Translations under genes and position numbers: made by a program
Notes under the pieces: generated by a model
The model's input: only the letters and a program-made list of their open reading frames with translations
Database searches by the model: none
What the model was told of the DNA's origin: nothing
Assembly: GCA_035426385.1 (NCBI GenBank)
Contig: DAOLZQ010000007.1
Location: forward strand, 252-64,251
Source of the DNA: Saprospiraceae bacterium
Lineage (GTDB): Bacteria; Bacteroidota; Bacteroidia; Chitinophagales; Saprospiraceae
Direction: 5' to 3'
Length of the DNA: 64,000 nt
Shown here: one piece after another, positions 38,228 through 50,126 of the stretch
Position numbering within the stretch: position 1 is the stretch's first letter
How the letters are laid out: each line of letters begins with the position of its first letter

Positions 38228-39460
38228 TTATTCATGTGAGCGTCCAAAACCCTTCGAACCTGATTTCATGAGTGCATCACCTTTTACTACAGAAGAATCC
38301 ACCATCCATTGAACCCGGACTTCTTTGCTCATATCCAGGTCGGGTTTCCCAGCATCCACCCAGGCTGAGTACCATAGTGAACCTACGCCTACTATTGCCT
38401 GTCGCATCCTGACTTCCACCATACCATTCATGATCTGCTGGTAGGCAGCGGCATAGTCTGCGCATTGAGTCCATACAGGTTTCCCCAATCGCTCTTCAAA
38501 ACACATTTGCTTATTTCGCGGATACTGAGCTTTTAGTTTGCTCTCCAGTAGCAATACAGAATCTGAAAGCTGGCCACTTTCATGAACTACTTTCCATATA
38601 TAGGCATCCACATCGCGAATATAATGACTACGACCTACCAAAAAGTCATATGTTTCGTCTGCAAATAATTCGGGAATTCTACTCTCCCAAAATGCATGTA
38701 TCCCCAACTGATCACTTTTCTGGCCATTATAATTGGAACAGGCGTGCAAGGGTACATGAGCATCCGCTATATAATGTCCGATGTCAGCAGCTATATTAAT
38801 AATGGAGGCAGCATCCCTTACAATAAATGCCTTGACCAATTTTTCATATTGCTGCTTGACAATATAGGGCACAAGACCATGCTCTGAAAAATGATCTTCA
38901 AATATTATTTTCTCGGGAGTGAAATTCATTGCCATACTGAACAACTTGAATGAGTCAGGCAGTAGAGCATAGTTTTGATTGTAATAAGCAGGCAATACCT
39001 GAAATCCGTAAAGTTTCCTGATTTGCGACTTAGGAAAATAAAATACTTTATCTCCCGCAATAACAGTGGCCAGTACATCCTCATTGCACCAGGAAGAATC
39101 CGCCACATGTATGGACAGGGTATCACTAGCCCGGATGAATCTCAAAAAGCTGTAACTGCTAAAACCCTCTGTAAGTGATCGTGGCAAACAAGATCCTTCA
39201 TAACGATCTAAGTCTAAAAAGTGACGAGGCGCCTCCAATCGAAAAGCATACCTCCGCTTATCAGGATCTACTGCGTGCTCGGTGAGAAAATCAATGTTGG
39301 TCTTAAACAAAGGAAACATCTGCTCCGGAAGTGTAAAGACAGCTAGCCTGTTGATACGACGGTGAGCAAAGAATCCCCATTGCGGGCTACCGGCATAGAT
39401 AAAGATCCCTACCGATAAGAAAATGAATATACCCACTGCGACCTTTCTATATACTCCCAT
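38228..39460 (-). CDS. zinc-dependent phospholipase C / S1-P1 nuclease-fold family protein
   Basis: N-terminal WGFFAHRRIN and a later HYIADAHVPLHA metal-ligand-like motif. Its stop codon abuts the PNP stop codon with zero spacing. Confidence 0.5.
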   Translation of the reverse strand: MGVYRKVAVGIFIFLSVGIFIYAGSPQWGFFAHRRINRLAVFTLPEQMFPLFKTNIDFLTEHAVDPDKRRYAFRLEAPRHFLDLDRYEGSCLPRSLTEGFSSYSFLRFIRASDTLSIHVADSSWCNEDVLATVIAGDKVFYFPKSQIRKLYGFQVLPAYYNQNYALLPDSFKLFSMAMNFTPEKIIFEDHFSEHGLVPYIVKQQYEKLVKAFIVRDAASIINIAADIGHYIADAHVPLHACSNYNGQKSDQLGIHAFWESRIPELFADETYDFLVGRSHYIRDVDAYIWKVVHESGQLSDSVLLLESKLKAQYPRNKQMCFEERLGKPVWTQCADYAAAYQQIMNGMVEVRMRQAIVGVGSLWYSAWVDAGKPDLDMSKEVRVQWMVDSSVVKGDALMKSGSKGFGRSHE

Positions 39461-39461
39461 A

Positions 39462-40466
39462 TCATTTGAAAAAGAATGAATATCCGAAAAATATTTTCTT
39501 TAATTGGTCTTCTTGTGCATAAAAAAATAAGCGGTCATCAAGAGTAACGAAGAAATTGAAGGGTCTGTGCTCCAGATCGACACGCTGACCTTCTTGCTCA
39601 GTATTAATAACCGGGTACATTATTAATTTCCTGACGACGTCGTCACTACCAGTAATTTGGAGATTGAGAAATGGGATTTCAGAAATCATAGTATCTGAAC
39701 TCATTTCATTTTTGGTAAATGCTTTCGCACCGTACATCTTTTCAAAACCGGCCAAGAAAGCTTCTACTTCACCAGGCTTCACAGGGCTTTCTATTTTTGT
39801 AGTAGTGCTGTAGAAGGGCTCCAAGTCATAGCTTTTACTTCCTTTTACCGTAAGGATAAACGATTCACTTTTGTTCCGAGGATAATCTACCGAAACTTTT
39901 CTAATTGAATTGATCGGGTATTCTGCAAGCACTCTGGAGATCAAATCGGTCTGGCTCAAAGGCCAATATCTGCTTCTCAGATCACCATCAAATCCCGGAA
40001 TACTCACTTCGTATGGGATATTAAACCCGTTTAACACCATATAAGTAGTCTCACCGGTTGGATTACCCATGCCCACATAGTATGACTTAACCAGTTTCTT
40101 GCCATCATATATTTCTACCTTCAGCCCAAGTGTCCCTATTTCATTCATCACGCGCGGGATTGCCGCTTTTGGCACCAGATTAATCACTTCAATTTTATTT
40201 ATGGTTTTGAGTAAATAATCTACAAAAAATTGATCAGCTTCAATGCCATCTTTAAGATACCATTTGCCATTTTTCTTATTTAAGTCAATTATTGAAGCAT
40301 TTTTATCAGCTACGAAGATTCTGTCCACATTGCTGATATCCTCTACCTTGAATTGTCGGCTATTGGAAGCACCGGTACTCATTTGAGCATTTTGCTGATA
40401 CATTTTGAATCCGACTATACCTAGTATGAGAAGTAACGCAAGAAGTATTACAGTTTTTTTATTCAT
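39462..40466 (-). CDS. DUF4340-like protein (gldG-associated)
   Basis: N-terminal TM helix, and a position immediately downstream of gldG, as commonly seen for DUF4340. Confidence 0.55.
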   Translation of the reverse strand: MNKKTVILLALLLILGIVGFKMYQQNAQMSTGASNSRQFKVEDISNVDRIFVADKNASIIDLNKKNGKWYLKDGIEADQFFVDYLLKTINKIEVINLVPKAAIPRVMNEIGTLGLKVEIYDGKKLVKSYYVGMGNPTGETTYMVLNGFNIPYEVSIPGFDGDLRSRYWPLSQTDLISRVLAEYPINSIRKVSVDYPRNKSESFILTVKGSKSYDLEPFYSTTTKIESPVKPGEVEAFLAGFEKMYGAKAFTKNEMSSDTMISEIPFLNLQITGSDDVVRKLIMYPVINTEQEGQRVDLEHRPFNFFVTLDDRLFFYAQEDQLKKIFFGYSFFFK

Positions 40467-40491
40467 TCTATTTTATTATGTCCTAAGCTGC

Positions 40492-42225
40492 TTAACGAGC
40501 GTATTTCCAACGTTTCCACCAGGCAAAAGCGCCCGCAAATAAACCAATTGCTAATAAAGGGAATACCACATTAAGCAACTGCCAGCTAGTTTTATTCTTA
40601 TCTATTGCCACTTTATCCAGTAGCCTCAATTTGACTTCTTTTGACCGAGCTTTTAAAATACCCTTTTCATCAAACATATATTCAATCGAATTTAGTAGAA
40701 AGTCTTTATTTCCATACATCTGCTTATCAAAAGAATTATAGCCAATGGGTAGATAATCTTCACCATTTGGATTGAATTTATTCTCCAGTAGTTTACCAAA
40801 GGTCACGACCATTATTTTTGTCGGTTTGCCATTGGAGATAAACTCAGTCTTTATATCTTTTAGCGTCTGCTGCATCTCCGCTCCTACTCTATTTTCATAC
40901 AGTGAGGGGAAGGAGCCTTCAACCAGGACAGCAGCCGGCTGGAAGGGTTTATTAAATTTCGCAGGATCAGGCGGATAGCGCAGGATTTCAAAGTTTATCC
41001 TGGCAGGGATGAACTGCACACGACTATATTTTGACGAGGCAAGTAAAATCGTCTTTTTAAGAGGTACTTTGGTTTTGATGGTATCAATTGAATTGGGGAA
41101 ACTCAGATTGACACGGTCTATATTTTTTACGATGGGATGTTCACTCTGGGAGGACATCAACGGTGCATAATACCAAGGAAAATTTTCTAGCTGAGCACCT
41201 GTACCCATCTTGCCCACTGCGAGCGGTATGGTACTACATTCCATATCCAGAATAAGGTTGGGCTGGATACGGAAACCATATTTAAAAAACAGATCATCCA
41301 AATTCACATTATTCTCAAGCGGTACATAATCTGCTGACTGACGACGTAGGCTATCCAGGTCTATCTTCACTTTATTTACAAGGAAAATAATCCGTCCTCC
41401 ACGCATGACGAATTGATCCAATACAAATTTTGCTTTTTCACTATAAGGAGTCTGAGGATTTGGCATAATGACCAGTCCTACTTGGTCTGGGATTTTGTAG
41501 ATACTATCCAGATGAATCCTTTTAATATCATAAAATGGAGCCATAGTGTTAATAAAATCCTGAGTTTCGATAGGCTTAGATTCTCCGTGTCCGGCAGTCA
41601 GTAAGATACCTGGTTTAATGACCCTAAATATTTTATTGATTGCATCCGCCAGCTTATATTCTAATAAATTGATAGACTGATTGAGCAATTCCTCATCACT
41701 AAATCCGGCAATGCTATTTTCTAATAAATTTACCGGGATAGTATGTGAGCCAAACTTTACCACGGCTACAGGATAAATTAATTTCTCTGACTGTTGATCA
41801 TTTTCAAATACTTTCAGATTGACCGGCTTGATACCTTGTGAAGCTAGCGTCTTTATACGCTCATTTTTCTCCTCGACAGAGCTGACATCCAGTGGGTCAC
41901 GGAAATTGTATTGTATATAAGGTGTTTCATTTCTGAACTGATCCAGTTTGTCCTTGATAGCTTCCTGCAGCCTTTTAAAACCTGCCGGAAATTTACCTTC
42001 CAGAAAGACTTCTATGTACACATTGTCTTTCATCTCATGCAGCATATTGACAGTCTCTGGAGTAAGTGTATATCTTCTCTCTTCAGTTAGATCTACCTTG
42101 GTATGCGCAAACTGGGCAATTACATTGACTACAAATAAGACCGCCGCCATTAGAAATACCTGGGTTAAACTCTGCTTGCCCCAGAGTTGCTTATTTTGCT
42201 CTGGCTTATTCGGGTTAGCTACCAT
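40492..42225 (-). CDS. gldG: gliding-motility-associated ABC transporter substrate-binding component GldG
   Basis: 577 aa with N- and C-terminal TM helices (the C-terminus ends WWKRWKYAR). Its position after gldF fits the GldG family pattern. Confidence 0.8.
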   Translation of the reverse strand: MVANPNKPEQNKQLWGKQSLTQVFLMAAVLFVVNVIAQFAHTKVDLTEERRYTLTPETVNMLHEMKDNVYIEVFLEGKFPAGFKRLQEAIKDKLDQFRNETPYIQYNFRDPLDVSSVEEKNERIKTLASQGIKPVNLKVFENDQQSEKLIYPVAVVKFGSHTIPVNLLENSIAGFSDEELLNQSINLLEYKLADAINKIFRVIKPGILLTAGHGESKPIETQDFINTMAPFYDIKRIHLDSIYKIPDQVGLVIMPNPQTPYSEKAKFVLDQFVMRGGRIIFLVNKVKIDLDSLRRQSADYVPLENNVNLDDLFFKYGFRIQPNLILDMECSTIPLAVGKMGTGAQLENFPWYYAPLMSSQSEHPIVKNIDRVNLSFPNSIDTIKTKVPLKKTILLASSKYSRVQFIPARINFEILRYPPDPAKFNKPFQPAAVLVEGSFPSLYENRVGAEMQQTLKDIKTEFISNGKPTKIMVVTFGKLLENKFNPNGEDYLPIGYNSFDKQMYGNKDFLLNSIEYMFDEKGILKARSKEVKLRLLDKVAIDKNKTSWQLLNVVFPLLAIGLFAGAFAWWKRWKYAR

Positions 42226-42233
42226 ATATGCCT

Positions 42234-42965
42234 TTATTTTTTATGTCTTTGCAGTGAAAATTGTGACAGGATTAAGAAAAAGATAATCACTGTCAAAAAA
42301 TATATGACGTCTCTGGAATCTATCAATCCTTTACTCATACGCTCATAATGGAAGTCTGCACCAAACTTTTGAATGGTATAGTCTACCGTGCCGGTAAATA
42401 CCGGCAATTTGCTCACAAAATAAAAAAACCAATGTATCCCAAAACAAATAAAGGCGCCGATCATAAATGCCACCACCTGATTGTTGGTAAGCGTACTGGC
42501 AAAGAGTCCTATAGAAACATAAGCAGATGAGAGGAAAAGCAAACCTATGTAAGAACCCATAGTTCCACCTATATCCAGATTCCCTTTCGGTGAACCTAAT
42601 TGATACACCGTGAAGAAATAAATCAGCGTAGGTAATAGGGCAATGCACACTATAAAGAAACCTGCCAGGAATTTACCCAATATTATATTCAGGTCCGTAA
42701 TGGGTTTCGTTGTAAGCAACTCAATTGTGCCGGTTTGATTCTCTTCAGCAAATGATCGCATAGTGATCGCGGGAATCAAGAACGTAAATATGGCTGGAGC
42801 AATAAAAAACATACTCTCCAGCGAAGCATAATTTGAAGATAGAATACTAAAATCCGGAAAGAAAAACAAGACTAGTCCCAATACGAGCAAAAACAATCCC
42901 AATACAATGAACCCTCCTAAATTAGTAAAGAATGAGATAATCTCTTTTTTAGTAATTGTCCACAT
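42234..42965 (-). CDS. gldF: gliding-motility-associated ABC transporter permease GldF
   Basis: 243-aa ABC-2-type permease with six TM helices, located between gldA and gldG. Confidence 0.8.
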   Translation of the reverse strand: MWTITKKEIISFFTNLGGFIVLGLFLLVLGLVLFFFPDFSILSSNYASLESMFFIAPAIFTFLIPAITMRSFAEENQTGTIELLTTKPITDLNIILGKFLAGFFIVCIALLPTLIYFFTVYQLGSPKGNLDIGGTMGSYIGLLFLSSAYVSIGLFASTLTNNQVVAFMIGAFICFGIHWFFYFVSKLPVFTGTVDYTIQKFGADFHYERMSKGLIDSRDVIYFLTVIIFFLILSQFSLQRHKK

Positions 42966-42970
42966 ACTGC

Positions 42971-43900
42971 TTATTTGTTTGTCTGAGTAAGTTGGTGGAA
43001 GACCTCCTCCATAGAAGCCAAGTTCACTGACATACCAATGATTTTCAGTCCATTTCTCACTGATGTATCAAAGATTTGTTCGCGCAAATCGTGATTTAAA
43101 GCAGAGTGAAATTGAACCGTTCGAGTATCATTTCTGTCATTCTGCTGCACCTCGATGAGGTCGGGAATAGTGCCAAAGATCTTTGCCGGGTTTGAGGGTG
43201 GGATTGAAAACTGGACACTCACTATTTGTTTGCCCTGATTTATTTGATTCAATGAAGTTATATCGTCATCAAATATTTTTAGTCCTTTATTTATGATAAT
43301 GACGCGGTTGCAGAGTGCCTCCACTTCTTGCATGATGTGAGAAGACAGTATGACTGATTTCTCCTTGCCAATCTCACGGATTACCTGACGGATCTCAACG
43401 AGCTGGTTGGGATCGAGTCCTGAAGTGGGTTCATCCATGATCAATACTTCCGGATCATGAATCATTGCCTGAGCTAAACCTACACGCTGCTTATACCCTT
43501 TCGAAATCTGGCTGATCTTCTTCTTGCGCTCATCTCCCAGCCCCGTGATTTCTATCATCTTATCAATGCGCTTTGAGGCATCCTTTAGGTTATATAAGTG
43601 AGCCACATAGTCAAGGTACTCCCGTATATACATATCCTTGTAAAGCGGATTATTCTCCGGCAAATACCCGATTTTCTTCCTTACCTCAATAGAATCATAT
43701 AAGGTATCTATGCCACAAATCTCGGCGTGACCGGAAGTCTGAGGTATAAAACAGGTCAATATCTTCATGGTGGTGGTTTTCCCTGCTCCATTTGGACCTA
43801 GAAAACCAAGTATATCACCTTTCTGAACATTGAAAGAGAGCTGATCAATCGCTTTCTGGTCATCATATACTTTGGTTAGACCATTAACTACTATAGACAT
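42971..43900 (-). CDS. gldA: gliding-motility-associated ABC transporter ATP-binding protein GldA
   Basis: Walker A GPNGAGKTT, signature ISKGYKQR and Walker B LIMDEPT. I trimmed the track ORF (to 44119) to the ATG at 43900 (MSIVVNGLTKVY), which is preceded by a -7 box at 43929-43936. Confidence 0.85.
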   Translation of the reverse strand: MSIVVNGLTKVYDDQKAIDQLSFNVQKGDILGFLGPNGAGKTTTMKILTCFIPQTSGHAEICGIDTLYDSIEVRKKIGYLPENNPLYKDMYIREYLDYVAHLYNLKDASKRIDKMIEITGLGDERKKKISQISKGYKQRVGLAQAMIHDPEVLIMDEPTSGLDPNQLVEIRQVIREIGKEKSVILSSHIMQEVEALCNRVIIINKGLKIFDDDITSLNQINQGKQIVSVQFSIPPSNPAKIFGTIPDLIEVQQNDRNDTRTVQFHSALNHDLREQIFDTSVRNGLKIIGMSVNLASMEEVFHQLTQTNK

Positions 43901-43928
43901 TCTTATGTGGAAATATGAGCATGAAAGG

Positions 43929-43936
43929 CAAAAGTA
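43929..43936 (-). promoter_or_regulatory. -7 promoter box (TACTTTTG on minus strand) for gldA operon
   Basis: CAAAAGTA on the plus strand is an exact TAnnTTTG on the minus strand, 28 nt upstream of the ATG at 43900. Confidence 0.45.
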
Positions 43937-43956
43937 ACAAAATCCAATGGGTTTAA

Positions 43957-44562
43957 TTAAAAGCCAACTTTCATAATGTTCCTCGCAAAAATTTGCACAG
44001 ATATGGCCAATAAAATAACACCGAAAAATTTTCTCACTGCAACTAGCCCTGAAGGGCCCAGTGCGCGATGAATCACTTTTAACGATTTCAAGACAATGAA
44101 AATTACTATCAAGTTGCACAAAATGCCTACGAGTATGACTAGTTCATTCTTACTCTTTAATTCAAAAGTAGCTTTCAGTGACATTATGGTAGTGAGGGTG
44201 CCTGTACCTGCTATGAGAGGAAAGGCAATAGGTACCAGTGTCCCCGTCTTTGGATTGGTATCCGGCTTGAATATTTCCCATCCTAGAATCATTTCAATAC
44301 CGATGAGAAACATAACTATACTCCCTCCTACTGCAAAAGAATAGTCACTTATGCCAAATAAATTGAGCAAAGGCCTACCCAAAAAGAAAAATAAAGTCAT
44401 CAGTGATCCGGAGATCAAAGTCACCGAAACTGAGCGAATATGACCCATTTTTTCTTTCAGTGAAATCAACACAGGTATCGAGCCAAGTATGTCAATTACT
44501 GCAAATAAAGTTACAAAAACAGCAAAGAACTCGTGCCAATCCCAATCAAAAAAATCACCCAT
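43957..44562 (-). CDS. MarC-family (UPF0056) integral membrane protein
   Basis: FVTLFAVIDILGSIPV N-terminal signature and six TM helices. I chose the ATG at 44562 (MGDFFDW) over the upstream ATG at 44580. Confidence 0.75.
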   Translation of the reverse strand: MGDFFDWDWHEFFAVFVTLFAVIDILGSIPVLISLKEKMGHIRSVSVTLISGSLMTLFFFLGRPLLNLFGISDYSFAVGGSIVMFLIGIEMILGWEIFKPDTNPKTGTLVPIAFPLIAGTGTLTTIMSLKATFELKSKNELVILVGILCNLIVIFIVLKSLKVIHRALGPSGLVAVRKFFGVILLAISVQIFARNIMKVGF

Positions 44563-44618
44563 GATACAAAAGTAAAACAATACAATTTAATGCCCTTAAA
44601 TATCTAACATGAAAAAGT

Positions 44619-45806
44619 CTAGCCCAAATTTGGTCTAGGACTTGGCATTAACCTCAGAAAATAGACCACAATCACTGCCGCCAATGCTCCAGACCATATA
44701 AATAGTGTAGCTGCCCCAAAATAGGTCCAAATAAGCCCAGCTAAGGTGCTGGCCAATAGAAGACAAATACTCTGAAAAGCAGTATAAGCGCCAATGGCGG
44801 TAGCAGTATCTTCTCTCTTCACAACATTGCTGATCCAAGCCTTGGAGACACCTTCTGTCGCGGCAGCATATAATCCATATAGAAAAAAGAACAGTGCAAA
44901 AGAATAAAACCCGGGGAAAACACCAAACCCTATATACACCAGTACAAATAAGCTCAACCCAAACACAAACATCTTCCTGAAACCGATTTTATCAGCGAGT
45001 ATTCCCACTGGATAAGACAGTAATGCATAGACCAGATTATAAAAAATATAAACTCCGATCGTCTGAGTATCATTGAGTCCAACATCCTTCATGCGTAAAA
45101 GCAGGAAAATATCTGAGCTATTGATCAGGGCAAATAGTAAGAACCCAATAGTAATCTGTCTATACTTCAGCGGACTGATCTTCCAATAGCTCATAAAAGA
45201 AAAGAATGAGACACCTCCAGTCCTCACCTCCTGAGAAACTTTTGATTCCTTTAATTTAAAAGTTAGCAAAATAGCCAACACACCGGGCAAAAAAGCTACC
45301 AAAAATAGTGTTCTATATTCCCCTGGTCTGAAGTATAAATAGATTAAAGCTGCAGCCGGTCCTAATACAGCTCCTATGGTATCCCAACTGCGGTGAAATC
45401 CAAACACTCGCCCTTTGTGCTCAGGAGTAGTCTCAGATGACAACAGAGCATCTCTGGCACCTGTGCGAATGCCTTTACCTAATCTATCTATAGTGCGGGC
45501 AAAGAATATCCATAACGGCTGGATTAAGAGAGCCATAAGAGGCTTTGAAAGTGCACTAAGACTATATCCCAATTGTACAAATGGCACCCGCCTGCCTTTA
45601 TGATCTGATAATTTACCGAAATATCCCTTGCTCAAGCCGGCAACCGCCTCTGCCAATCCCTCTAAGAGACCTATTGCAACAATTGAAAAACCAATAGATC
45701 GCAGATAGGCAGGCATGACCGGATAGAGCATTTCGCTCGCCATGTCAGTACATAAACTGACCAGTGAAAGTACCCATATGGTGCGGGTAATTATCTTTCT
45801 GGTCAA
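44619..45806 (-). CDS. MFS transporter
   Basis: 12 predicted TM helices and a G..SD..GRR loop between TM2 and TM3. It has a TTG start 6 nt after the upstream stop. Confidence 0.8.
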   Translation of the reverse strand: MTRKIITRTIWVLSLVSLCTDMASEMLYPVMPAYLRSIGFSIVAIGLLEGLAEAVAGLSKGYFGKLSDHKGRRVPFVQLGYSLSALSKPLMALLIQPLWIFFARTIDRLGKGIRTGARDALLSSETTPEHKGRVFGFHRSWDTIGAVLGPAAALIYLYFRPGEYRTLFLVAFLPGVLAILLTFKLKESKVSQEVRTGGVSFFSFMSYWKISPLKYRQITIGFLLFALINSSDIFLLLRMKDVGLNDTQTIGVYIFYNLVYALLSYPVGILADKIGFRKMFVFGLSLFVLVYIGFGVFPGFYSFALFFFLYGLYAAATEGVSKAWISNVVKREDTATAIGAYTAFQSICLLLASTLAGLIWTYFGAATLFIWSGALAAVIVVYFLRLMPSPRPNLG

Positions 45807-45812
45807 GGATTA

Positions 45813-46910
45813 TTACAGTTTCAGGACTCGACCGGTGAACCTTACTCCGTCGAGATTTTCTGCTTGGATCAGATAAAATCCTTTAACCCAACTGCCCACT
45901 TCAATGATTTGATCTCCAGAAATATTACCCTTCCACATAACCTTTCCCTGAATATCCAAGATTTGTACATTATAAGTAATCATTTGGTCGGAAAAGGATA
46001 TATTTAGAATCTTGTCAGCCGGAACAGGTGAGATCTGTGCAACAGTCTCAATAGGTGCAGTCTTTAACTTATTATTTAGTTTCCAGTTGGTCCTATATTC
46101 TAGTCTGTATCTTGCAGTAGGTCTTTGTTTACCCACTTTCGCTACAAATCCTCTTACCTCGGGAGACCAATAGATAAATTCATGGCCAGCGGTATTTAGA
46201 TTCTCCGACCCCGGAAATAGACTAGTTATGTCTTGCCAGCCAAGAAATGGGATATACATTTCTAAGGTTGTAGTCGTACGAAAACCATGATTAAACTGAA
46301 CTACCGGATAGCTTTCCTCCGGTAATTTCAAGATGCCACTACCTGACATAGAAAGCGTATCAGCCCATGCAATAGTGATCCTGAATGAATCCGGTTTTAT
46401 AGGTAATTGATTTAGAATTGAATCCGGCAATATAGAGGAAGGGAAGCTATTCCTAGCTTGTGAAGCAGTAATATGCTTATCACCAAGCCCAGTGGGGACA
46501 AAAACTTCAGGAACCGATGGATTATACTTCAAGTTGACGGGAAAAGGACCAAAATTTCCTGCCATACCTAGGAATTGTAGCGAAGTCGGATTGCTAAATA
46601 GATAATTTTCACTCATTGGATTTTGGGAAGTAGTCATCATCAGATTAGCAGAGGAAAATGCTGCGTGATTGTTTCCGGTAGCAGGATCTCTATAATAATA
46701 TCCTATGCTGCTATTCTGACTGATCTGTTGGAAATCCCAGGTCTGATTCAATCCGGTCTGAATCCCACTAGTAGAATCAAAAGATGAAGTGGAGGATACA
46801 TAGATAGAATCTCCGATTATAGGGAAAGAGGTGTCCGATATAGATATCTGACTATAACCAATGCAGACTCCTAAACCCATAAAGAGTACTACTAATAAAC
46901 TAACTTTCAT
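45813..46910 (-). CDS. uncharacterised secreted protein with T9SS type A sorting domain
   Basis: Signal peptide MKVSLLVVLFMGLGVCIGYSQ. The C-terminus ISPVPADKILNISF...ILDIQGKVMW...GFYLIQA is a sorting domain. There is an 8-nt gap to the upstream gene. Confidence 0.65.
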   Translation of the reverse strand: MKVSLLVVLFMGLGVCIGYSQISISDTSFPIIGDSIYVSSTSSFDSTSGIQTGLNQTWDFQQISQNSSIGYYYRDPATGNNHAAFSSANLMMTTSQNPMSENYLFSNPTSLQFLGMAGNFGPFPVNLKYNPSVPEVFVPTGLGDKHITASQARNSFPSSILPDSILNQLPIKPDSFRITIAWADTLSMSGSGILKLPEESYPVVQFNHGFRTTTTLEMYIPFLGWQDITSLFPGSENLNTAGHEFIYWSPEVRGFVAKVGKQRPTARYRLEYRTNWKLNNKLKTAPIETVAQISPVPADKILNISFSDQMITYNVQILDIQGKVMWKGNISGDQIIEVGSWVKGFYLIQAENLDGVRFTGRVLKL

Positions 46911-46918
46911 ATATAAGA

Positions 46919-48487
46919 TTATAATTTAATGAATTTTTGAGTCAACTGGTTATCAGAGGTCTTTACCCTTGCGAAATAACTTCCCGCCGGCAATGTATGT
47001 ATATCAATCTCCATTTGATACATTCCATTGTCTGCATACTGATTGCTGTATTTAGAAATAAACACTTTGCCATTAAGATCAATGATATCCACAGTAATGG
47101 GCTGAGCTCTGCTAAGTGTAAAAGGAACTGTAATTTTGTTTTTAGAAGGATCGGGATATATTGGGAAGATCTTGTCCTTCATAAAATCAAGAACCACCTT
47201 TTTATTATCCAGTATATCACCGAATACCAAATTCTCATCACCCGGTTGATACGTCATAAAAATCAGAGGCAAATAATACATCTCATCCGAAGTTTTCTCA
47301 CCCCAAGATACAGTTTTAGGCGGGTTATTTGGATTATAAGGATTATTTGTGGTGTTATCATACGTAGCAAAAGCGTGTATCTGTGACCCTTTCGGAAGTA
47401 CTACGGGCTTTACAAAGTTGTACGCACCCTGCCAGTTGAAGTCCCAATCATTTATTTTCATCACATCAATGCGGGTTTGGTTCGGTAGTACCGCATAGAT
47501 CTCCCACTTTCTGCCCAATAAGTGCATATGGGGTGAGACGCCCAGGAAAGTGACATCATATGGGAGTGTGATGAGTCCATGAAATTCTTTGACCGTATTT
47601 GGTGGTATCACAAATACATCGCCTTGTAAAACACCGGGGATAGGCAACATGACATACGACTGTACGAAGCGCGTAGGAATGTCTTTACTAAAGAATAAAT
47701 TGATAGAAGTACTATCCCATTCATCTGTAGCGGAGGGCGCATAGTGCATTTGCAATAGTAAATCAGAATTTTTAGGGATTCTCATTGCTAATCCATCAGT
47801 ATAAACTATGGGTTTCTGACCGGGTACATATCCCGGTAGTTGATTGTTCAGTTGACCCGATATTGAGCTGCTAGAACCTGAAAATCCATATTCCGGTGTA
47901 GCCGCATCCGCATCTCGCGAGGCTGAAGTAGAATCTGCCCATATCAGAGTGTGATGTACGACCTTCTTGTTCCCCGGTCTAACCTCCAGTGCAGTCAGAT
48001 ATTTGGTTTCAGTCAGGTGAGTTGGAATAACAAAGTAACGATACTCATCGGTACCTGTACCTTTGTGTAAATAGGATTGGGCAAATGAGACTACCATATC
48101 CGGAGTACCGATCTGCGAACCCGTAGGAAATACGGGGAATTGCGGTTCAATATTGGGATCACCTCTTTCCATTCCCTGATCTACCCAGGTGGATATCAGA
48201 TTAATTTCTTCATCTGACAAGAAATTTTGCTTTTGATAGTCACGGATTCCTCTTTCAGGCTTGAAAGGCGGCATATATTTGATCCCGGTGACATACTTAA
48301 TAAAATTTCCCCGATCCTTGACTTCTGCGTAGTTGGTCAACGAAAAAGGCGCGATTTCGCCCGGTCTATGACAAGAACCACATTTATTATATATGATCGG
48401 AGCAATATGCTCTGCAAAAGTAACTTGTTGTGCCTCGGCTTTATAAAAGATGCCAAAGCAAAGAATAGATAATAATAGAATTCGCAT
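46919..48487 (-). CDS. secreted CxxCH-motif / PHM-DBH-type copper monooxygenase-like protein with T9SS sorting domain
   Basis: Signal peptide, then C36-G-S-C-H40 in an IAPIIYNKCGSCH...MPPF context. The copper ligand pattern is H178-H179, H248, H320-x-H322 and M403 (in TSDEM), plus DWDFNWQ. The C-terminus IYPDPSKNKITVPF...GSYFARV is a T9SS domain. Confidence 0.7.
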   Translation of the reverse strand: MRILLLSILCFGIFYKAEAQQVTFAEHIAPIIYNKCGSCHRPGEIAPFSLTNYAEVKDRGNFIKYVTGIKYMPPFKPERGIRDYQKQNFLSDEEINLISTWVDQGMERGDPNIEPQFPVFPTGSQIGTPDMVVSFAQSYLHKGTGTDEYRYFVIPTHLTETKYLTALEVRPGNKKVVHHTLIWADSTSASRDADAATPEYGFSGSSSSISGQLNNQLPGYVPGQKPIVYTDGLAMRIPKNSDLLLQMHYAPSATDEWDSTSINLFFSKDIPTRFVQSYVMLPIPGVLQGDVFVIPPNTVKEFHGLITLPYDVTFLGVSPHMHLLGRKWEIYAVLPNQTRIDVMKINDWDFNWQGAYNFVKPVVLPKGSQIHAFATYDNTTNNPYNPNNPPKTVSWGEKTSDEMYYLPLIFMTYQPGDENLVFGDILDNKKVVLDFMKDKIFPIYPDPSKNKITVPFTLSRAQPITVDIIDLNGKVFISKYSNQYADNGMYQMEIDIHTLPAGSYFARVKTSDNQLTQKFIKL

Positions 48488-48497
48488 GATTTTTCTT

Positions 48498-49052
48498 TTA
48501 TTTTATGATAAAACAGCCAATAGGTTCCGTATTGGCGGGTATACTCTTTGTGCCATATAATACATTCTCCAGGGCATCAGCTACATATTTTTCTGTAACT
48601 ACTGACCTTTTCTTTCCAAGAGTTTCATATTGATTGTCCAATTTTCCTCTATACAAAATAGAATTTCTCTGATTATCCCACAGTATCACCTCGGGAGTAA
48701 TAGATGCTTTGAATTTTCGAGTCCATTTCTGGCCTTTATCAACTACCGACTCACAATGCAAGTTATATTTTTCTTTAAAATTCTCAATTGATTCTTTTGT
48801 GGACTCTCGATTATTGGGAAATATCATAACAAATTGCACACTGTCAGAACTATATCGGGCCATTAATTCTTTCCAATTGAGCGTGATCTGCTGACAAATG
48901 GGACAAGATTCGGATACAAAAATGTAAATAGTGTAAAGTGGTTTCTCATTGCTACTGCTTATAGAGCTACTATATAGGTCGACGCCGGCTATTGAAAAAC
49001 TCAGAAAAAGTACAAAAAATAATCTCATAACTTTGATCATATGTCGGTCCAT
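48498..49052 (-). CDS. secreted thioredoxin-fold protein (CPIC active site)
   Basis: Hydrophobic leader, YIFVSESCPICQQ (CxxC) and ITPEVILW (a cis-Pro-like loop). There is a 10-nt gap to the monooxygenase-like gene. Confidence 0.7.
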   Translation of the reverse strand: MDRHMIKVMRLFFVLFLSFSIAGVDLYSSSISSSNEKPLYTIYIFVSESCPICQQITLNWKELMARYSSDSVQFVMIFPNNRESTKESIENFKEKYNLHCESVVDKGQKWTRKFKASITPEVILWDNQRNSILYRGKLDNQYETLGKKRSVVTEKYVADALENVLYGTKSIPANTEPIGCFIIK

Positions 49053-49514: not shown

Positions 49515-50126
49515 ATGAAATACAGGATGAATTCTTTGCTCCAGGTAAAGTCAATGGTATTTTTGAGTTTTATTTTTTGGCTTCCATTTATGGGTCAGGC
49601 TCAGGTAGAGCAGACTCCGAAAGAAAAAGAATCCTATACTAATCCATCTATTAATAATAGAGCTGCCCCACCCCGCTACGAGCATCGAGGTGACAGAAGA
49701 GGTGGAGACCAGTGTACCTGTCGAGAGTGCCAGCATAAGATGAATATGCAGGCACATCAAGGACCGATGATGACGCCCGAAGAAGGTGCAATGAATATCA
49801 ATAGATATCGTAAACTGCGTAATACAGGGATAGGACTGATGATAGGTGGTGCTGTAGTTACTGGAGCAGGAATAGGTATCCTGGCATATAGCTTTGTAAA
49901 GAAGGATAAAGAAGGTGAATATAAATTCACCGACAGTCCTGATCCTATCCTGGCTATTGCGGGCAGTGGTACTGCCCTATTGGGCAGTGCAGCGCTAACT
50001 TCAGGGACAGTACTGACAATAGTAAGCTCTATTAAGATGAATCGAACCCGCTCAGCCATGAGGGATATGGGTACTCTCGATTTACAGTCCGGCAGAAATG
50101 GTTTAGGGCTTTGCCTAAGGTTCTAA
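49515..50126 (+). CDS. hypothetical membrane protein
   Basis: I chose the in-frame ATG at 49515 (MKYRMNSLLQVKSMVFLSFIFWLPFMGQAQ signal) rather than the track start at 49365, which overlaps DUF3467. There are two Gly-rich TM segments. Confidence 0.5.
   Translation: MKYRMNSLLQVKSMVFLSFIFWLPFMGQAQVEQTPKEKESYTNPSINNRAAPPRYEHRGDRRGGDQCTCRECQHKMNMQAHQGPMMTPEEGAMNINRYRKLRNTGIGLMIGGAVVTGAGIGILAYSFVKKDKEGEYKFTDSPDPILAIAGSGTALLGSAALTSGTVLTIVSSIKMNRTRSAMRDMGTLDLQSGRNGLGLCLRF

Follow-up and report, generated by a model that had tools for sequence, protein, structure and literature searches.

Four genes follow one another on the minus strand of a stretch of 64,000 nucleotides from an uncultured Saprospiraceae bacterium (Bacteroidota; NCBI GenBank assembly GCA_035426385.1, contig DAOLZQ010000007.1, positions 252 to 64,251), which we call the window and whose coordinates are used throughout. 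The first gene (48498–49052) encodes a thioredoxin-fold protein of 184 amino acids with a Redoxin/AhpC-TSA fold and a hydrophobic N-terminus, which lacks the C-terminal sorting domain (CTD) of the T9SS (type IX secretion system). The second (46919–48487) encodes a protein of 522 amino acids that combines a signal peptide, a putative cytochrome c domain, a dicopper core resembling that of peptidylglycine α-hydroxylating monooxygenase (PHM) and dopamine β-hydroxylase (DBH), and a T9SS CTD; we refer to these two proteins as the partner and the enzyme. They are followed by the gene for P3 (45813–46910), a T9SS cargo protein of 365 amino acids with a β-rich N-terminal domain of no assigned fold and a CTD encoded at 45819–46034, and by a gene with a TTG start codon (44619–45806) for an MFS_1 transporter of 395 amino acids (E = 5e-41). 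The gaps between successive genes are 10, 8 and 6 nt, and export signals were assigned to the first three products by eye, on the basis of a hydrophobic N-terminus. An initial annotation of the window had placed these four co-directional open reading frames (ORFs) and their gaps exactly, and its domain calls (a thioredoxin fold with a CPIC motif, a copper monooxygenase-like protein, a T9SS cargo and an MFS transporter) are confirmed by Pfam and NCBIfam; it had taken the four genes for a single module. As judged by synteny, the conserved functional unit is the gene pair of partner and enzyme and not the four-gene module, and we would class the enzyme family among the dicopper monooxygenases of the PHM/DBH type, from which it is set apart by a c-type heme of its own, a dedicated thiol partner and, in Bacteroidota, export by the T9SS.

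PHM and DBH, type II copper monooxygenases of eukaryotes, are textbook enzymes that depend on ascorbate, and work on their chemistry has been confined almost entirely to animals. The architecture of the protein described here is hidden by public annotation, as the identical deposited protein (HQW11031.1) bears only the label "T9SS type A sorting domain-containing protein". Among the candidates scored, 3,701 database proteins are homologous to the enzyme at E ≤ 0.001; the homologs listed are named "T9SS sorting domain" or "hypothetical", with a single JGI label reading "mono/diheme cytochrome c family". Neither Pfam (2025 copy) nor NCBIfam (2026) holds a model for the combination of cytochrome c, PHM-like core and T9SS CTD, and no bacterial member was found described when the literature was searched for copper monooxygenases of bacteria that are PHM-like, belong to Cu2_monoox or are linked to a cytochrome; the term "PHM-like" came up in a single review, which deals with DBH. 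To describe the family, the enzyme was aligned first with 18 and then with 78 homologs, with identity down to 37%.

The N-terminal domain of the enzyme (residues 21–110; 48158–48427, minus strand) has the features of a class I c-type cytochrome, namely a CxxCH motif, a distal methionine and a helical domain. The heme-attachment motif CGSCH (residues 36–40; 48368–48382, minus strand) is conserved as CxxCH (Cys36, Cys39, His40) in all 76 sequences that include the N-terminus, and Met72 (48272–48274, minus strand), which may serve as the axial heme ligand, is present in 78 of the 78 homologs. In the AlphaFold2 model of the enzyme (mean pLDDT 82), the domain is made of helices 24–38, 53–68 and 92–103. 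The isolated N-terminal piece matches the Pfam models Cytochrome_CBB3 (E = 4e-4; 21 bits against a threshold of 27) and Cytochrom_C (E = 0.03; 16 bits against 21.3) weakly, below the thresholds of both. Cys36 and Cys39 are the only conserved cysteines of the entire enzyme. The motif had been missed in the initial annotation; it matters because the dicopper core would thereby be immediately preceded by a carrier of single electrons.

The core itself (residues 125–420; 47228–48115, minus strand) is predicted to consist of two β-sandwich domains of the PHM/DBH type. When the model was compared with the PDB using Foldseek, the top matches were 31 chains of PHM and DBH, with E-values from 2.3e-13 to 4e-9 over about 310 aligned columns; rat PHM (3mll) ranked best, with E = 2.3e-13 and a template modelling (TM) score of 0.65 on the target, human DBH (4zel) scored E = 4e-11, and the match that came after these chains dropped to about 4e-6 with a TM score of 0.17. 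Six candidate copper ligands are each conserved in 78 of 78 homologs: His178-His179 (47951–47956) and His248 (47744–47746) for the CuH site, and His320-x-His322 (47522–47530) and Met403 (47279–47281) for the CuM site, all encoded on the minus strand. The similarity at the level of primary sequence is marginal. The Cu2_monoox_C model scores 22.9 bits on the full enzyme, with a cut-off of 23, and 24.3 bits on the isolated core; the N-terminal Cu2_monoox model of Pfam does not hit the enzyme, and neither the enzyme nor the profile of its family retrieved a PHM or DBH chain when PDB sequences were searched. Since sequence methods miss PHM while the fold and the ligand set find it, we consider the enzyme, which would bind heme c and copper at both the CuH and CuM sites, to be a remote relative of PHM. 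In a BLASTP comparison with a PHM core sequence, the HH pair, the third histidine and the HxH motif are colinear with His107/108, His172 and His242/244 of PHM, and an SDEM motif aligns to Met314 in a separate gapped segment; this ligand-by-ligand equivalence is to be taken as a lead and not as a measurement. The peptidylglycine-binding residues of PHM are Arg240, Asn316 and Tyr318. In the same tentative alignment, conservation of these is not evident: the position of Arg240 is occupied by Ser318 of the enzyme and the region past Met403 aligns with gaps only. Only the copper ligands are recognizably shared with PHM, and the peptide amidation considered in the initial annotation is not supported.

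The C-terminal part of the enzyme (residues 443–522; 46922–47161, minus strand) is a T9SS type A sorting domain, recognized by both PF18962 (E = 7e-13, 49.1 bits) and TIGR04183 (E = 3e-11, 43.1 bits). The partner, which is deposited identically as the "redoxin domain-containing protein" HQW11032.1 (176 residues in the NCBI version, 184 in the window), scores above the cut-offs of the Redoxin and AhpC-TSA models. As a word-indexed search with the partner gave four proteins, an exhaustive profile search with a hidden Markov model was used instead, and this recovered 9,749 relatives at E ≤ 0.001, of which 428 are at E ≤ 1e-30. Among the best 150, 149 are stand-alone proteins of 163–232 residues that end with the thioredoxin fold and therefore carry no CTD.

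In an alignment of 48 partner sequences, Cys50 of the CPIC motif (residues 50–53; 48894–48905, minus strand) is invariant and aligns with the first cysteine of the thioredoxin CxxC. The second position of the motif is variable: residue 53 is cysteine in 30 sequences, serine in 13 and threonine in five, and it is alanine in the fused proteins described below, so that a conserved CxxC dithiol is not a trait of the family, though the copy in the window has CPIC. This dispensability of Cys53 had also been overlooked in the initial annotation. At the other end of the protein, the dipeptide Gly179-Cys180 (Cys180 at 48513–48515, minus strand) occurs in each of the 46 sequences long enough to include it, and the loop that bears the cis-proline is nearly invariant (Thr119 in 45 and Pro120 in 48 of 48). 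These conservation patterns set the partner apart from the classical CxxC thioredoxins, and its conserved thiols are Cys50 and Cys180; any dithiol chemistry would therefore have to use this pair. The best relatives of the partner in the PDB are 2ywi, 2cvb/2ywo and 3u5r (profile E-values from 1e-15 to 5e-12), in which the C-terminal cysteine is conserved as well. The structures of ResA and StoA match the profile at E-values between 2e-8 and 1e-5, and the corresponding family models give 18–20 bits with cut-offs of 170–210. The motif CxxC/S/T differs from the CxxxC and distal histidine of Sco proteins; no histidine or methionine is conserved anywhere in the alignment, and the residue three positions before Cys50, which would be threonine or serine in a peroxiredoxin, is not conserved either.

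To examine the conservation of the locus, one genome per species was scanned, which gave at least 594 confirmed relatives of the enzyme, and the best 80 loci were analyzed both by tblastn with the proteins of the window and by unbiased clustering of their 790 ORFs, the two approaches being in agreement. These loci span Saprospiraceae, Lewinellaceae, Haliscomenobacter, Chitinophagales, Sphingobacteriales, Hymenobacter and other Cytophagales, as well as Flavobacteriales, Crocinitomicaceae, Kapaibacteria and Ignavibacteria. In 59 of the 80 loci, a partner gene adjoins the enzyme gene and shares its strand, lying upstream in 49 and downstream in 10; as nine loci are truncated, this corresponds to 83% of the 71 that are informative. 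The partner is the sole recurring neighbor family, the next family being found in six loci. Some loci contain two paralogs of the enzyme, either both in front of one partner gene (L075) or on the two sides of it (L076 and L080). Five of the contigs are labelled as Hyphomicrobiales, Halioglobus, Luminiphilus or Janthinobacterium (L018, L039, L046, L058, L069); two of these proteins (L046, L069) visibly end in a T9SS-type CTD and the other three match the query via its CTD region, and the contigs are probably mis-binned DNA of Bacteroidota. In place of a T9SS CTD, the first of the two enzyme copies in L080 has a dockerin-like repeat at its end (DDNIVGVADALILLGDFG ... DDDQAVTVADVLLLLGLYG).

The same survey bears on the proposal that all four genes form one extracytoplasmic module for oxidation or peptide modification, in which P3 would be a substrate or scaffold and the MFS protein would move a small-molecule substrate or product. 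The narrow gaps speak for it, as does the number of terminator-like sites, which does not exceed that of shuffled sequences, and the order of all four genes is shared by L084, the nearest relative, whose enzyme is 76% identical. P3 comes after the enzyme gene in six loci of relatives, three of them among the 80 (L001–L003) and the others being L084–L086. It is absent, however, from the remaining 77 of the 80 loci, and the MFS gene is absent from all 80, having been found only in the window and in L084. In the next relatives, with enzymes that are 67%, 66%, 60% and 58% identical, P3 is followed directly by a gene of the MarC family, without the MFS gene. Only eight homologs of P3 were found. 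Within L001–L003 it is 27–29% identical where the flanking genes are 58–88% identical, and the family is unlinked to the pair in L081–L083, L088 and L089; three such homologs (P0122, P0123 and P0127) are encoded after an ABC exporter or near RecQ, far from any enzyme of this type. With tight spacing common in the window besides, the four-gene module is largely refuted by synteny, the test that the initial annotation had itself set for it, and we hold it to be very improbable. P3 and the MFS gene are probably recent, lineage-specific neighbors of the pair, even if they are probably co-transcribed with it in this genome.

As the initial annotation had noted, P3 belongs to no recognizable family. 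Its CTD is detected by PF18962 (28.5 bits) and TIGR04183 (29.4 bits) and, in a model with a pLDDT of 71, resembles the CTD structures of T9SS substrates (for example 8glk_D, with a TM score of 0.81); outside the CTD, neither a Pfam or NCBIfam domain nor a credible PDB match (TM score about 0.18) was found. On unrelated contigs (L082/L083 and L088), a P3 homolog lies downstream of a biotin carboxylase and an ABC_membrane/ABC_tran exporter, which may be the ancestral location of this gene.

The pairing of partner and enzyme is extended by proteins in which the two are fused. The exception to the stand-alone form among the best 150 relatives of the partner, P0168, is a chain of 1,251 residues with two tandem units, each made of a thioredoxin-fold domain, a cytochrome c domain, a PHM-like core and a transmembrane helix, a domain order that is the gene order of the window. 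In each unit, the thioredoxin part has CPLA, with alanine in place of the second cysteine, followed by the G-C motif, and the CxxCH motif comes about 30 residues after this C-terminal cysteine, ahead of the HH, H, HMH and EM motifs of the core. P0168 passes the Cytochrome_CBB3 threshold with 37 bits, and its AhpC-TSA match, which covers two domains, amounts to 132 bits. On its contig, which has 58% GC, a fusion of 674 residues with the same domain order and the start of a third are encoded as well. The initial annotation had mentioned that fusions of thioredoxin-like and copper monooxygenase domains occur in bacteria; they do, with at least two paralogs beside P0168 on this contig, and they include the heme domain. 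Each of the fused paralogs has a thioredoxin domain of its own, which argues for a stoichiometric and not a general catalytic role. We regard P0168 as decisive for the coupling of the two proteins. The three fused paralogs (L087, 3–3962 and 4171–13926) are located directly downstream of a polyketide-synthase-like gene, so named by eye from its ketosynthase, ketoreductase and carrier-protein motifs, and near a gene for an SNase-domain protein.

These observations, taken together, are compatible with a relay of electrons from the partner to the copper sites. After export by the Sec system, heme would be attached at the CxxCH motif and two coppers would be loaded into the core, both in the periplasm. 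The partner, itself presumably reduced by a membrane reductase of the CcdA/DsbD type, would act there on the heme domain and hand reducing equivalents to the heme, from which electrons would pass singly to CuH (His178, His179, His248) and on to CuM (His320, His322, Met403). Oxygen would be activated at CuM and a C–H bond of the substrate hydroxylated, as in PHM and DBH, with the built-in heme standing in for ascorbate as the immediate donor. Once folded, the enzyme would be brought by the T9SS to the surface of the cell or into the medium; in the membrane-anchored fused forms, transfer from thiol to heme could occur in every turnover. Cofactor binding, direction of electron flow, partner role, localization and substrate are what we infer here. 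The initial annotation had proposed that the thioredoxin-fold partner replaces ascorbate. This idea of an electron supply by a protein holds up in altered form: the coupling of the two proteins stands, given the 59 of 80 loci and the fusions, and the invariant heme motif shifts the model of electron supply from a direct replacement to a relay via the heme. That the partner is a dedicated, stoichiometric thiol redox partner of the heme domain is favored by the separate copy in each fused paralog, by the proximity there of the C-terminal cysteine to the heme motif and by pairing in both gene orders across the phylum, and we consider this role tentative, with a chance that falls somewhat short of even; for the explanation as a whole, relay and dedicated partner, we would put the chance only slightly below even.

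Several observations weigh against this explanation. The main one concerns topology: with a T9SS CTD on the enzyme and none on the partner, the two are expected in different compartments after export and the partner would act, in the organism of the window, only before export. In the partner, the second of the CxxC cysteines is not conserved. No gene for CcdA or DsbD recurs near the pair among the 790 ORFs of the 80 loci. No partner gene adjoins the enzyme gene in 12 loci whose flanks measure at least 700 bp on either side, and the genes that are present there (for an amidase, a DUF3810 protein, TPR proteins and other T9SS cargo) provide no consistent alternative. The similarity to PHM is marginal at the sequence level, with the Pfam hit at threshold and no PDB hit with the family profile, and the literature searches found no experiment on any member of the family. 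In L009, L011 and L015, which have no thioredoxin-fold neighbor, the enzyme gene is preceded at a distance of 12–17 nt by a gene for an exported Amidase_2 (N-acetylmuramoyl-L-alanine amidase) protein of about 477 residues.

The topological objection favors the alternative that the partner is a maturation factor only. Like ResA, CcmG or TlpA, it would keep the heme-binding cysteines of the apo-enzyme reduced before T9SS export, and the enzyme at the surface would be fed by an external donor through its heme domain. Cys36 and Cys39, as the only conserved cysteines of the enzyme, are a natural target for such a reductase, the partner has weak matches to StoA and ResA, and the presence of the CTD on the enzyme but not on the partner fits the compartments; the reduction of client cysteines by TlpA-type proteins before metallation is established (PMC6696091). 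A general cytochrome c reductase, however, should serve all cytochromes, whereas the partner is found beside one enzyme in 83% of informative loci, and in one genome at least three paralogs each have it fused to them in cis. Moreover, the second CxxC cysteine, which is essential in ResA and CcmG, is serine, threonine or alanine in many partners. We judge a role confined to maturation to be unlikely, if the more serious of the two remaining alternatives.

According to the other, the partner would be a Cu(I) chaperone that uses a thiolate site formed by Cys50 and Cys180 to load both coppers, or a protector of the Sco or peroxiredoxin type that removes peroxide arising from uncoupled turnover. 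Two invariant cysteines suffice for linear coordination of Cu(I), it is common for a stoichiometric chaperone domain to be fused to its client, and the AhpC-TSA match is strong in the fused forms. Copper chaperones with a thioredoxin fold, such as Sco, exist (PMC6696091). The partner family, on the other hand, has neither the CxxxC and histidine signature of Sco nor any conserved histidine or methionine, it lacks the conserved threonine or serine three residues before the cysteine that peroxiredoxins have, and its relatives from structural genomics were deposited only as hypothetical or uncharacterized proteins. We therefore see a chaperone or protector as improbable and prefer the relay with a dedicated thiol partner.

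If the relay operates as proposed, the pair offers a concrete, testable answer to the question of how PHM-type enzymes can be reduced without ascorbate. A large bacterial family would have kept the dicopper site, would carry its own c-type heme and is tied, as neighborhood and fusion indicate, to a thiol protein. For the orphan thioredoxin-fold group of 2ywi, 2cvb and 3u5r this is a first functional lead, and a redox metalloenzyme would be added to the repertoire of T9SS cargo. A wider reading is that we are dealing with an ascorbate-independent, self-sufficient PHM-type system (thiol protein to covalently bound heme c to CuH/CuM) whose holo-enzyme, with heme and copper in place, is exported by the T9SS in Bacteroidota as an unrecognized class of surface oxidative enzyme, with an ecological role on peptides, amines or polymers like that of lytic polysaccharide monooxygenases (LPMOs); this we regard as rather unlikely on present evidence. 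As cultured species of Hymenobacter carry the pair (L053–L055, L065), experiments are feasible.

The close spacing of the four genes is real yet not distinctive, because gaps of 10 nt or less account for 14 of the 39 same-strand gaps across the window (by a crude ORF call) and because the co-directional run on the minus strand exceeds four genes, extending from 38228 to 49052 through genes for MarC, a GldA/F/G-like ABC transporter and a DUF4340 protein. The gap of 6 nt hinges on the TTG start of the MFS gene, which is supported by the conservation at the protein level, in the closest relative L084, of the 20 residues ahead of the first ATG. Consensus scans for sigma-70 promoters and terminators gave nothing above shuffled sequence, with nine terminator-like sites found and 8.0 ± 3.1 expected. 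Bacteroidetes-type -7 motifs are present upstream of the MarC gene and of the ABC gene, and none is present in the region of 107 nt upstream of the partner gene. The strongest sigma-70-type match of the region (46918–46945, minus strand; TTGACT, 16 nt, TATAAT, 11 of 12 positions), a type from which the Bacteroidota consensus differs, falls within the last nucleotides of the enzyme gene, with 8 nt between it and the start codon of P3, and could be an internal P3 promoter or a chance match.

After the MFS gene comes a gene of the MarC/NAAT family (43957–44580, minus strand). Its ORF, listed with a TTG start, contains a -7 motif, TACTTTTG, at 44567–44574, and 5 nt downstream of this motif is an in-frame ATG (44562); the ATG is probably the true start, and MarC may have its own promoter. 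A further -7 motif at 43929–43936 stands ahead of the ABC ATPase gene, the first of a group (39462–43900, minus strand) of four genes spaced by 5, 8 and 25 nt, whose products are an ABC ATPase, an ABC-2 permease and an ABC_transp_aux/DUF7088 protein (together GldA/F/G-like) as well as a DUF4340 protein. A functional link of the pair to this gliding-type transporter or to MarC was considered and rejected, since synteny is confined to the closest clade (L001–L003, L084–L086). On the other side of the pair, downstream of a divergent DUF3467 gene, a plus-strand ORF at about 49515–50126 encodes a signal-like N-terminus, a stretch rich in cysteine, histidine and methionine (CTCRECQHKMNMQAHQGPMM) and glycine-rich hydrophobic segments; L084–L086 have a gene without a Pfam hit at the equivalent position.

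Compared with PHM and DBH, the enzyme has the same two-β-sandwich core (Foldseek E-values of 2e-13 and 4e-11, respectively) and its HH...H and HxH...M ligand sets appear in the same order and in similar local motifs, which in PHM are VHHxL, LQxHY, HxHxLG and SDEM. It differs in being bacterial, in a similarity that lies at or below family thresholds, in carrying a T9SS CTD and in having no conserved disulfides, with only the CxxCH cysteines kept. An N-terminal c-type heme domain occupies the place of the DOMON domain of DBH, where PHM has nothing, and the residues that bind the peptide carboxylate in PHM have no obvious counterparts. The electron donor is presumably protein-borne, in contrast to the ascorbate of PHM and DBH. 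A functional analogy, and only that, can be drawn to the cytochrome domain of cellobiose dehydrogenase, in which a heme domain acts as a one-electron shuttle that feeds an extracellular copper oxygenase, the LPMO: the folds are unrelated, heme b is used there and heme c would be used here, one copper contrasts with two, and nothing in our data points to a polysaccharide substrate.

For the partner, the closest counterparts are the proteins from Geobacillus (2ywi), Thermus (TTHA0593; 2cvb/2ywo) and Sinorhizobium (3u5r), presumably the "PRX_like1" group of CDD, which likewise have a single conserved N-terminal cysteine and a C-terminal one. The motifs in common are C-P-x-x (more narrowly C-P-x-V), T-P-[DE], Y-x-G-x-x-D (extended to Y-x-G-x-x-D-D) and, at the C-terminus, I-G-C-x-I. 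No link of these proteins to copper monooxygenases is known, whereas the partner has an export signal or membrane anchor and, in the window, the full CxxC. TlpA acts as a periplasmic reductant, in a manner analogous to the maturation role considered above (PMC6696091). TlpA, ResA, CcmG and StoA are, as the partner appears to be, exported thioredoxin-fold proteins with a cis-proline loop (Thr119-Pro120 in the partner), each reducing a particular class of clients in the periplasm to which it is dedicated, but the second active-site cysteine is not conserved in the partner family and the scores against ResA and StoA are far below the cut-offs. Joining a thioredoxin domain to the enzyme that it serves is an established arrangement, for which a precedent is PilB of Neisseria, a periplasmic protein in which thioredoxin, MsrA and MsrB domains are joined in one chain and the TlpA-like domain reduces the enzyme attached to it.

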